Made by a program: the position numbers and the translations under genes. Shown in pieces: positions 52,444-54,982 of a stretch of 60,046 nucleotides of DNA. The stretch is from positions 62,001 to 122,046 of the forward strand of contig JBEWZL010000116.1 of NCBI GenBank assembly GCA_045837725.1. Direction: 5' to 3'. Every line of letters starts with the position of its first letter. Within the stretch, counting starts at the first letter, position 1. The notes under the pieces were generated by a model. It did no database searches and was not told where the DNA came from. It saw nothing but the letters and a program-made list of their open reading frames with translations. Origin of the DNA: Vermamoeba vermiformis (lineage: Eukaryota).

Positions 52444-54982
52444 ATGAAACTGACGTTGTGTATTATTGCAATTATTGTGCTGGCCATCGAATCGAATTTT
52501 GTTCGTGGAGGTAATTTAACGGAAACAATAATTACCCTATATGCATCGATAATTATTTACCTTGCTAATTGTTAATTATTTGCTAGATTTTTTAACGAGT
52601 CGTGACGCGCTTTACGTTCGGATCCTTCCGCCAGATGGTGCAATTGTTAAATCCAATCCGCCTTCATTTTGGTGGACCGCTCTAGGATTTCTTGGCAACG
52701 GCAAATCGTTTAACTTGTCGATCTGGGCCAACTCAACGGCCAATCGTCAACCTGACTGGAGTTTCACGACAACGAACTGCTTTTTCAACGTGCCGCTTGC
52801 CTTACCCGTGGACACGTACTACTTTTGGAGAGTGACTTTGCTGGACTCTGTCAAGGGCACGTCGAATGACAGCGATGTGCGCTCGTTCTACGTAACTTCG
52901 GATGCCACAACATTTGTCGTGCCAACTGATATTATCACTACGACGAAGAGCTCCGCTCGCCCACGATTGTTGCTGAAGGACGACGCGAAGGTAGCTTTCT
53001 TGGCTTCATCCTCTGGTCAATCATTTGTCAAGCAATTGAACGCCGTTGTAATTCCGTACCTTAACAGAGGGATCGGAGCAACACTCCCCGTCGCACCGAA
53101 CAAGACATCCAGTGACTTTCCTCCTGGCTCTCCTGAATGGGCCGCGTACCTATCGAGCGTATATGATGACTTCACGAGTCCGCAAGTCGTTTACATTTCG
53201 AGCTGCATCTACGCTCTTTGGTACAACTCGTCAAACGCGATCTTCGTCAACGAGCTCAAGCGAAGAACATTTGCACTTTTGGACGCGGACCCGGCAGGTG
53301 CAACGAGCAATGCCTCACAAGATCAAGCAAACAGAGCCATCTTATTGTCGCTAGCTCAAACGCTTGATGTGATCTACGACAACTTCACAGCGACTGATCG
53401 TGATAGAATCTTGGCGAACATCAAGAACAGAACCGAACAAGTGTATCAGGACGGAGACGAGTTCACTCGCCTCATGACATTGCCCTACGACTCTCACGGT
53501 GCCAACACTCTTGGCTTCATCGCCACTGCTAGCGCGGCAATGCTTGGACTGATTCCTGAAGCAGACGCGTGGGCAGAAAGTATTCCCATGTTCTTAAACA
53601 TGTACAGCACCTGGGGTCTGCAAGAAGGAGGCTTCGGCAATGGCATGGGCTACGCATACTTCGACGTGACAAGTGCCCCGTCCCGCTTCAACTTCTTGAA
53701 GTGGAGTACTGGCGTGAGTCTGTATCAGAAGCAGTGGGTGCGCGAGTGGCCCTTGCAGTTCATCTACTTCTCACCACCTGGAGCGGCATCGGGAGGTCTT
53801 GGCTTTGGTGACAGTGGACAGCAAGACATGCGTCGACTTCAACCTATAGTCTGTCTCAACGTTGTTAGTCCACTTCTCGATGAATCTCCAAATATGGAAT
53901 ATGAAGGCCTTTACAACTGGTACTGCAATGCACTCTCTTACAAAGGCGTCGTCGACCCACGCTACTACGATGTTATTTGGAGTCGCGAGTTCAACTCACC
54001 TCAACCACTGGCAAGCAACTATCCCAATGCTATTCACTTGGCATCGATTGGCTGGGCGTCATTTCACAGCTCTCTCGCCGACAACCAACGCACGTCACTG
54101 TTCTTCCGCTCAGGCAGATTTGGCACAGACAGCCACAACTACGCGGATCAGCTGTGCTTCACATTTGCGCACAAAGGCAAAGCGTTGCTCATCAACAGCG
54201 GTTACTACGATTACTTTGGATCTCCTCATCACTTTGGCTGGACAAAGACCACAAGATCTAAGAGTGGTGGCGTGACTATGGATGGAGGCGTAGGGCAAAT
54301 GATCAGTCAGATCGGTGCATCAGGCAACATCACTCAATTCGGCCACTCAAACGAGTTTGATTTTGTCACCGGAGATGCTTTGGTTGCATACAACTATGGC
54401 ATAACAAACTCAGCTCTTCAGTTAACACGTGCCATTCGCTCCATTGTATACTTACGGGCCAGCAATCAGTTTGTGATCTTCGACCAATTTGACGCCAACT
54501 CTCCTCGTAGCTTCGAATGGAATCTGCACGCATTCATCAACTTCACTGTTGTTTCACCATCAACTGTCAAGTCAAGTGATGGCAATGCATCATTGTGCAT
54601 CAAGATGCTGTACACTTCGTCTGATTACACCTTCACTCAAACAGATCAGTTCACTGTTCCAGTGAACTTGCCTAATCAAGCACACGGCCAGTTCAAACTC
54701 AACACTAACCTCACTTCAGTCACATTTGTCGTATTGTTGGATCCTGACTGTACTGGAAATGAACCACAGCTGAATCAAAATGGTAACACATGGTCGTTCA
54801 ACATTGGTGAAACAAGAGGCACTTGGGATGGCAATCAACTTGCCATTTCTTACCCTGAAACACCAACTGACTCTACAAACCCTTCATCTCATTCACCTGG
54901 TGGCTCTGTGACCAGCACTGCATCGCTTGCGGCAGTTTGTTTTGTTGCAATAACCATTGCTTTGTGTACCTTATTGATTTGA
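52444..54982 (+). CDS. Secreted/GPI-anchored polysaccharide lyase, DUF4962 + heparinase II/III-like (PL15-like oligo-alginate lyase architecture)
   Basis: Signal exon MKLTLCIIAIIVLA..., one intron 52511-52587, then a 2.4-kb exon: PPDGAIVKSNPPSFWW, RPRLLL, YDSHG, GFGNGMGY, GFGD, SHNYADQ, LINSGYYDYFGSPHH, IFDQF, FEWNLHA; hydrophobic C-terminus. Confidence 0.85.

Follow-up and report, generated by a model that had tools for sequence, protein, structure and literature searches.

A nine-copy family of putative PL15-like lyases of bacterial origin in the amoeba Vermamoeba vermiformis, with a sister clade in chytrid fungi

The matrix of flocs and biofilms is widely held to shield bacteria from protist grazing, and the transfer of carbohydrate-active enzymes into eukaryotes is well known; to our knowledge, few of the amoebal enzymes that breach such matrices have been identified. 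One gene in the 60,046-nucleotide stretch of Vermamoeba vermiformis DNA analysed here (the window) raises the question of whether an amoeba took such an enzyme from bacteria. The original prediction read it as a transferred PL15-like polysaccharide lyase, domesticated as a surface enzyme held by a glycosylphosphatidylinositol (GPI) anchor. Where did this gene come from, and what might its product do?

The gene model agrees with the structure first proposed, an ~800-aa catalytic region in one uninterrupted 2.4-kb exon and a single intron directly after the signal peptide. The product has 820 aa, in frame across both exons; no other stop-free frame in the window comes close in length to that of exon 2 (809 aa, with the runner-up at 356 aa). 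Its features are as follows:

52204..52443, + strand: ~240 bp 5' of the gene, ~80% conserved in several paralogous loci (blastn against these loci); putative promoter/5' UTR
52444, + strand: start codon ATG of the gene model
52444..52510, + strand: exon 1, signal peptide, 67 nt (22 codons plus 1 base)
52511..52586, + strand: sole intron, 76 nt, GT..AG, phase 1, 26% GC
52587..54982, + strand: exon 2, entire catalytic region, stalk, tail and stop, 2396 nt
52781..53809, + strand: DUF4962 (PF16332, Pfam E 3e-19), N-terminal beta domain plus (alpha/alpha) toroid according to the structural model
53495..53497, + strand: His aligned with His311 of Atu3025, the catalytic base according to the available text of PMC8286568 and PMC13709232
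53651..53653, + strand: Tyr aligned with Tyr365 of Atu3025, the catalytic acid according to the available text of PMC13709232
54032..54559, + strand: heparinase II/III C-terminal domain (PF07940, Hepar_II_III_C; Pfam E 2e-15)
54134..54148, + strand: HNYAD, in which the first His corresponds to His531 of Atu3025 and is kept, and the second, at a metal-ligand position, is replaced by Tyr
54854..54925, + strand: Ser/Pro/Thr-rich stalk, 24 aa, where, judged by eye, the omega site is likely to be the end of the stalk
54926..54979, + strand: hydrophobic C-terminal GPI-type signal, 18 aa, with no cytoplasmic tail; missing from the chytrid homologues

The exon had also been described as GC-rich, and the gene is indeed richer than the window (0.486 against 0.40). 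High GC was ruled out as a sign of foreign origin: the native actin genes are higher still (GC 0.525, GC3 0.65), so that composition is uninformative on this point. The predicted glycosylation sites, stalk and hydrophobic tail are all present. The protein carries 12 NxS/T sequons, or 1.5 per 100 aa, compared with a median of 0.57 and a maximum of 1.84 in 145 bacterial relatives. By inspection and hydropathy, GPI-type features (signal peptide, small-residue omega site, hydrophobic end) recur in 8/8 full-length copies of the amoeba, and the host genome encodes Gaa1. On these sequence features, the amoeba proteins are probably surface-anchored.

Read data gave no spliced joint and no expression for the window copy; runs X5-X7 held 2-5 partial reads each, the strain or organism being probably absent from them. 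In run X1, whose RNA nature is a guess, contig pieces 90-98% alike cover the gene, and the only spliced joint lies in an upstream gene (intron 50817-50878 of window gene 50609-51568). That gene and another 5' of the lyase (48053-48526; both on the + strand) encode small Cys-rich proteins with Pro/Ser/Ala stalks, GPI-type tails and no Pfam match. Elsewhere in the window, two similar ABCA-type transporter genes are arranged convergently, as an inverted pair (34587-38840, + strand; 42350-47046, - strand), and 3' of the lyase lies a multi-exon gene (55424-57924, - strand) with no Pfam match in the three frames tested.

The combination of DUF4962 and heparinase II/III domains, proposed at the outset, is borne out by Pfam matches that both exceed the curated cut-off. 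A structure predicted from 109 sequences reached a pLDDT of 95 and replaced an earlier 9-sequence model (pLDDT 63), which was set aside. Its best structural match is the Agrobacterium PL15 enzyme Atu3025 (3A0O; Z 36.8, rmsd 3.7, 709 aligned residues), followed by exoHep (6LJA, Z 34.5), heparinase II (30.2) and DS-epi1 (25.9), which places the PL15 fold above non-PL15 folds, as predicted. Residues were mapped by alignment to 3A0O and to its H531A mutant 3AFL, the PL15 catalytic centre being formed by His311, Tyr365 and His531 (PMC8286568, PMC13709232, available text). The DSHG and GMGY motifs put forward as catalytic candidates are present, and a conserved His and Tyr align with His311 and Tyr365. 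The reading of the usual HxHxD as HNYAD was right as to the letters: the catalytic His is kept and the metal-ligand His is gone. The His/Tyr/His triad occurs in all eukaryotic rows that cover each site (16/16, 15/15 and 16/16), and a second Tyr is also invariant across the amoeba and chytrid rows, at ~40% overall identity. Arg199 of Atu3025 aligns with Ser in the window protein. A PL15-like fold, domain order and set of catalytic residues are thus supported for this protein.

The metal site tells eukaryotic and bacterial sequences apart. The metal-ligand His is found in 0/16 eukaryotic rows and the Asp/Glu ~18 (17-18) residues further on also in 0/16, against 83/92 and 66/92 of the bacterial rows, respectively; the third metal position, which we take to be the zinc ligand of heparinase II, is His in 71/92 bacterial and 0/15 eukaryotic rows. 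The ligands were mapped by motif spacing to His452/Glu470 of DS-epi1, where the counterparts of the two lost ligands bind Mn, and their mutation in the human enzyme abolishes activity or expression (PMC8006597, available text). Loss of the metal site need not kill the enzyme, because active Atu3025 is also without the last two ligands: proteins of its type (L099) retain a single metal-ligand residue of the three, missing the acidic one and that at the third position.

The window gene is one member of a family. A search of the amoeba's own genome returned 13 matches that resolve into nine loci on eight contigs, with per-piece identities of 41-88%. Frameshifts affect three copies and truncation one, defects that assembly error and pseudogenization fit alike; the other five are intact. 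The intact copies are under purifying selection, with dN/dS of 0.15-0.24 in 10/10 pairs of the five (dS being near saturation for the most distant copy). In 8/8 other copies a signal-like exon ends in phase 1 before GT. That this signal intron is spliced in a paralogue is suggested indirectly by one Logan protein, P0174, whose signal peptide runs straight into the mature sequence at the point where genomic calls (P0167) read through the intron. One paralogue carries a 91-nt intron within the catalytic region (L107:4682-4772, - strand; G000:C236) that the other copies and its close metagenomic relatives do not have, an apparent recent gain. Metagenomes also contain near-identical relatives of a distant copy (the P0017 cluster). 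The original prediction had spoken of a single transferred gene; transfer holds, but for a family of nine copies rather than one gene. Chimeric assembly, named as what could undo it, is excluded by nine intron-bearing copies on eight contigs of up to 657 kb, and domestication finds backing in the conserved signal intron, the GPI-type tail, the host Gaa1 and the low dN/dS.

Outside the amoeba, the other named eukaryotic homologues come from the chytrids Rhizoclosmatium, Obelidium and Siphonaria only, at 39-45% identity. They are multi-copy, sit on contigs of 269-653 kb, have a signal peptide where complete, and carry no stalk or anchor. Broad eukaryotic orthologues, which would have spoken for vertical inheritance, did not appear: the named hits comprise these three genera and Vermamoeba-like records. 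Of 1,535 hits from a profile search, the best 150 begin with five eukaryote-like rows, the only ones among them; the rest are at ~32% identity or less, those with names being bacterial (Chitinivorax, Roseateles). Identity is 30-33% to a bacterial group found in exopolysaccharide (EPS) loci and 23-29% to the classic PL15 alginate lyases. Exact-pattern scans with the eukaryotic alignment A1, an insensitive method, retrieved no relative from GTDB genomes, JGI metagenomes or viral contigs; there was no phage match, a word-limited search found no fragment below 294 aa, and every cluster retrieved from the ESM Atlas was a bacterial DUF4962/heparinase one.

Phylogenies were inferred with FastTree (258 rows, after exclusion of 24 hits outside coverage/span limits, two duplicates and three redundant own fragments), with IQ-TREE under C20 (61 rows) and under LG+G4 (34 rows). 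In all three trees, amoeba and chytrid sequences formed one clade (SH-aLRT support 100) with the two lineages reciprocally monophyletic. A Roseateles-containing group emerged as their sister (support 96-97), and the FastTree and C20 trees placed them inside a proteobacterial clade with support of 100. The eukaryotes did not group with the Atu3025/Vibrio clade in any of the three free trees, and exoHep, included as one long-branch representative (L100), lay far from them in the FastTree analysis, at ~20-24% identity. AU tests (LG+G4, 34 rows) rejected topologies joining either eukaryote alone to the sister bacteria (p-AU 0.001 and 0.0006). The tests did not reject a topology with the eukaryotes as sister to all proteobacterial rows (p 0.60, its constrained tree being 4 lnL better), nor one grouping them with classic PL15 (p-AU 0.074, this forced grouping being 45 lnL worse).

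The eukaryotic clade thus lies among bacterial sequences, is patchy among eukaryotes and is integrated in host DNA, its exact placement not being fixed by the AU tests; a bacterial origin of the amoeba family, as originally proposed, is supported by sequence data. A transfer confined to the amoeba, in contrast, is contradicted by the chytrid sister clade, which has no anchor. Most simply, the gene would have entered eukaryotes one time and later passed between amoeba and chytrid, in either direction; gene exchange between the two is probable, and two transfers from an unsampled donor are a possible alternative. Inheritance from an amoeba-fungus ancestor with near-universal loss is very improbable, as is bacterial contamination or chimerism. 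The tree has no statistically firm root, protist sampling is thin, and Amoebozoa and fungi both belong to Amorphea, all of which would suit common descent; against it stand the narrow set of named eukaryotic hits and a gene body nearly free of introns in an intron-rich genome. Contamination is countered by the intron-bearing copies and by the lengths of the amoeba and chytrid contigs.

Gene context in bacteria bears on the substrate. Loci were drawn from GTDB as the best 80 of 530 confirmed matches to a bacterial alignment (A2), which is not the sister group itself, and are mostly from Betaproteobacteria. Fifteen of them, scanned against NCBIfam, contained mostly GT4/GT2 glycosyltransferases, a flippase, EpsF/EpsG, exosortase and an asnB-like amidotransferase, together with UDP-sugar dehydrogenases (including TviB/TviC-like ones), WecB/WecG and a second heparinase-III-like gene. 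The uronic and amino-uronic acids whose chemistry a lyase requires are products of such dehydrogenases. Among the same best 80, EPS-synthesis markers occurred in 44 (at least two families in 34) and in 36/60 loci of at least 10 kb; once the 12 loci that had seeded the markers were removed, 24/48 long loci had an EPS marker and the other half none. A co-oriented EPS marker lay within 2.5 kb in 25/60 long loci, or 15/48 without the seeds. An uptake or catabolism marker was seen in 1/80 (a lone GntR), or 1/60 of the long loci, and in the remaining loci the DUF4962 gene stood by itself or close to genes for type II secretion. In classic PL15 control loci, by comparison, ABC uptake genes were present in 2/4 and an EPS marker in 0/4. 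L051, the one sister-group member of known context, adjoins GT2/GT4/WecG genes. By a crude test, a hydrophobic N-terminus is present in 107/145 bacterial relatives against 0/3 classic PL15 proteins. Zoogloea-type bacteria depend on EPS, PEP-CTERM and asnB genes to form flocs (PMC13453990, PMC7662799, available text). Gene context in bacteria thus lends indirect support to an EPS or capsule substrate. In a separate observation, six EPS loci (L019, L021, L024, L027, L060 and L084) pair the DUF4962 gene with a heparinase-III-like gene; the corresponding marker, found in 38 of the best 80 loci, may include cross-hits to the DUF4962 gene.

How does the family compare with known systems? Atu3025 shares the three-domain fold over ~710 residues, the domains and the triad, and differs in its identity of 22-25%, its alginate-uptake operons, the lack of a signal-like N-terminus and its separate clade in the free trees; compared with it, the window protein has a signal peptide and a GPI-type tail, is predicted to be secreted, and has lost the second His of HxH. 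BIexoHep (PL15_2) shares fold, domain order, signal peptide and a His337/Tyr390/His555 triad (PMC7904915, available text), but is a Bacteroidota protein at ~20% identity, and heparin is an unlikely substrate for the window protein. The closest bacterial relatives, by sequence and by tree, are the proteobacterial DUF4962/heparinase II/III proteins of Chitinivorax, Roseateles, Usitatibacter, Thiobacillus, Nitrosospira, Massilia and Minwuia, in which the triad is kept; in contrast to the amoeba protein, most retain the metal ligands, many sit in EPS loci, and no stalk or GPI tail was seen. The Chytridiales proteins share the multi-copy state, signal peptide and metal-ligand loss, but without stalk or hydrophobic tail would be secreted by osmotrophic chitin saprotrophs, as R. 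globosum is known to be (PMC12115818, PMC6690862, available text). DS-epi1 (6HZN), also a DUF4962 protein from a eukaryote, shares the fold and the His/Tyr site, yet at 13-14% identity is a Mn-dependent Golgi epimerase and structurally much further away than PL15. The idea of a eukaryote with a bacterial-type lyase recalls the alginate lyase of Acanthamoeba castellanii, for which a biofilm role has been proposed and which is only predicted (PMC7641382, PMC10761080; the word 'alginate' is absent from the available text of PMC4053784); no Acanthamoeba name is among the hits listed. Red-algal PL7 lyases derived from horizontal transfer are a further case, with another fold, and PL15-HMM hits have been described in 15 basidiomycetes (PMC3652786, available text). 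The window protein would be expected to work like a PL15 lyase while branching, in the free trees, with neither characterised subgroup.

On balance, we slightly favour a role as a transferred, surface-displayed lyase that uses His/Tyr beta-elimination to open bacterial exopolysaccharide containing uronate, so that the amoeba can reach its prey. The source of the gene would be, or lie next to, a little-studied clade of exported enzymes found mostly in Betaproteobacteria; after one entry into a eukaryote, it would have reached both Vermamoeba and the chitin-eating Chytridiales. The amoeba lineage would then have gained the post-signal intron, glycosylation sites and GPI-type tail, and expanded to nine copies. 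From a position on the cell surface or the membrane of the phagosome, the enzyme could cut uronic- or amino-uronic-acid EPS of capsules, flocs or biofilm matrix without the metal ion of its family, freeing or unshielding prey rather than yielding sugar. We infer activity, substrate, location, ecological role and transfer route alike. Prey access cannot explain the chytrid copies, because chytrids are osmotrophs; speculatively, their secreted form might clear bacterial film off chitin particles. A more far-reaching scenario, tentative and on the doubtful side, would have the prey's own slime-processing lyase turned on the prey: captured from floc or capsule loci of freshwater Betaproteobacteria, stripped of its metal site, moored to the surface, diversified and passed between amoeba and chytrid, it would represent an unstudied PL15-related subfamily for amino-uronate floc EPS.

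Other functions are less probable. The protein might, as Atu3025 is, be a genuine exolyase of oligo-alginate, with Pseudomonas or Azotobacter alginate as its substrate, or a heparin-type exolyase. The domain architecture had originally been taken as typical of exolytic alginate and glycosaminoglycan lyases; Atu3025 and exoHep are the nearest solved structures, the Atu3025 type shares part of the metal-ligand loss, alginate is among the polymers of biofilms, and Acanthamoeba has a predicted alginate lyase (PMC7641382, available text). Yet characterised enzymes of this kind are distant (25% identity or less), the EPS-locus group is closer than either subgroup, classic members belong to ABC-uptake/reductase operons and lack the hydrophobic N-terminus by the crude test above, and Ser replaces Arg199. 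An exon-by-exon search, a weak negative, found no GH88, KduI or KDPG aldolase in the host, and no KDG pathway; the data do not support the reading as an exolytic alginate/GAG lyase, and we consider this function unlikely. We would also not expect, though the idea has some appeal, that the family acts as lyase or C5-epimerase on acidic glycans that the eukaryote itself makes (for glycocalyx, cyst wall or slime), in the manner of the animal dermatan-sulfate epimerase. Human DS-epi1 has the same fold and DUF4962, the authors of PMC8006597 (available text) note that a lyase can become an epimerase through minor alterations, the bacterial relatives lie in synthesis loci, and retention in non-phagotrophic chytrids would be accounted for. 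However, the Mn that DS-epi1 needs is held by residues that are gone here, and GPI topology with nine divergent copies better fits an external, variable substrate. More improbable still is a catalytically weak or dead protein that would bind acidic glycans of bacteria at the surface, as a lectin or adhesin: stalk-borne display and the missing metal site in all eukaryotic rows would agree with it, but the triad and second Tyr would hardly stay invariant at such divergence.

In the literature searched, which did not extend to subscription papers or to CAZy and MycoCosm annotations, we found no description of the amoeba-chytrid clade. Four R. globosum accessions and both Pfam identifiers are absent from two supplementary files of a chytrid HGT survey (PMC11291939) in which other ORY accessions are present, and the available text and five supplements of the Vermamoeba genome paper (PMC7125106) contain no mention of a lyase, alginate or heparinase; the R. 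globosum secretome supplements (PMC12115818) lay outside this scope and may list the chytrid homologues. What appears to be new is the nine-copy amoeba family, its chytrid sister clade, and nearest bacteria that are an EPS-locus group rather than alginate lyases. The family offers concrete, expressible candidates for matrix breaching in an amoeba common in water systems, bacterial gene context provides a short list of substrates, and a large, little-studied bacterial clade and a probable amoeba-chytrid exchange come into view. If the full scenario were true, a grazer would be using a prey-derived lyase, and a PL15-related subfamily for amino-uronate floc exopolysaccharides would be defined.

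The host genome holds further candidates. A second heparinase-II-like gene, unrelated to the family (L103:1950-4610; G000:C193), has 2FUQ as its best PDB match (E 2e-9), several introns, an intact HxHxD and a GPI-type tail, gives no tblastn match to the window protein, and may have been acquired in a similar way at an earlier time. A third candidate host lyase is indicated by a weak match to Alginate_lyase (PF05426) that is above the cut-off (E 1e-4; G000:C166:16950-17294, - strand). Lastly, the 18S gene (L014; G000:C11:679063-681372) matches exactly both primers used for Vermamoeba vermiformis in PMC12114036, two sites that point to this species or a close relative as host. The gene spans 2310 bases against a model of 1831 positions, and its mid-gene insert of ~450-500 bases looks, by eye, like a group I intron.
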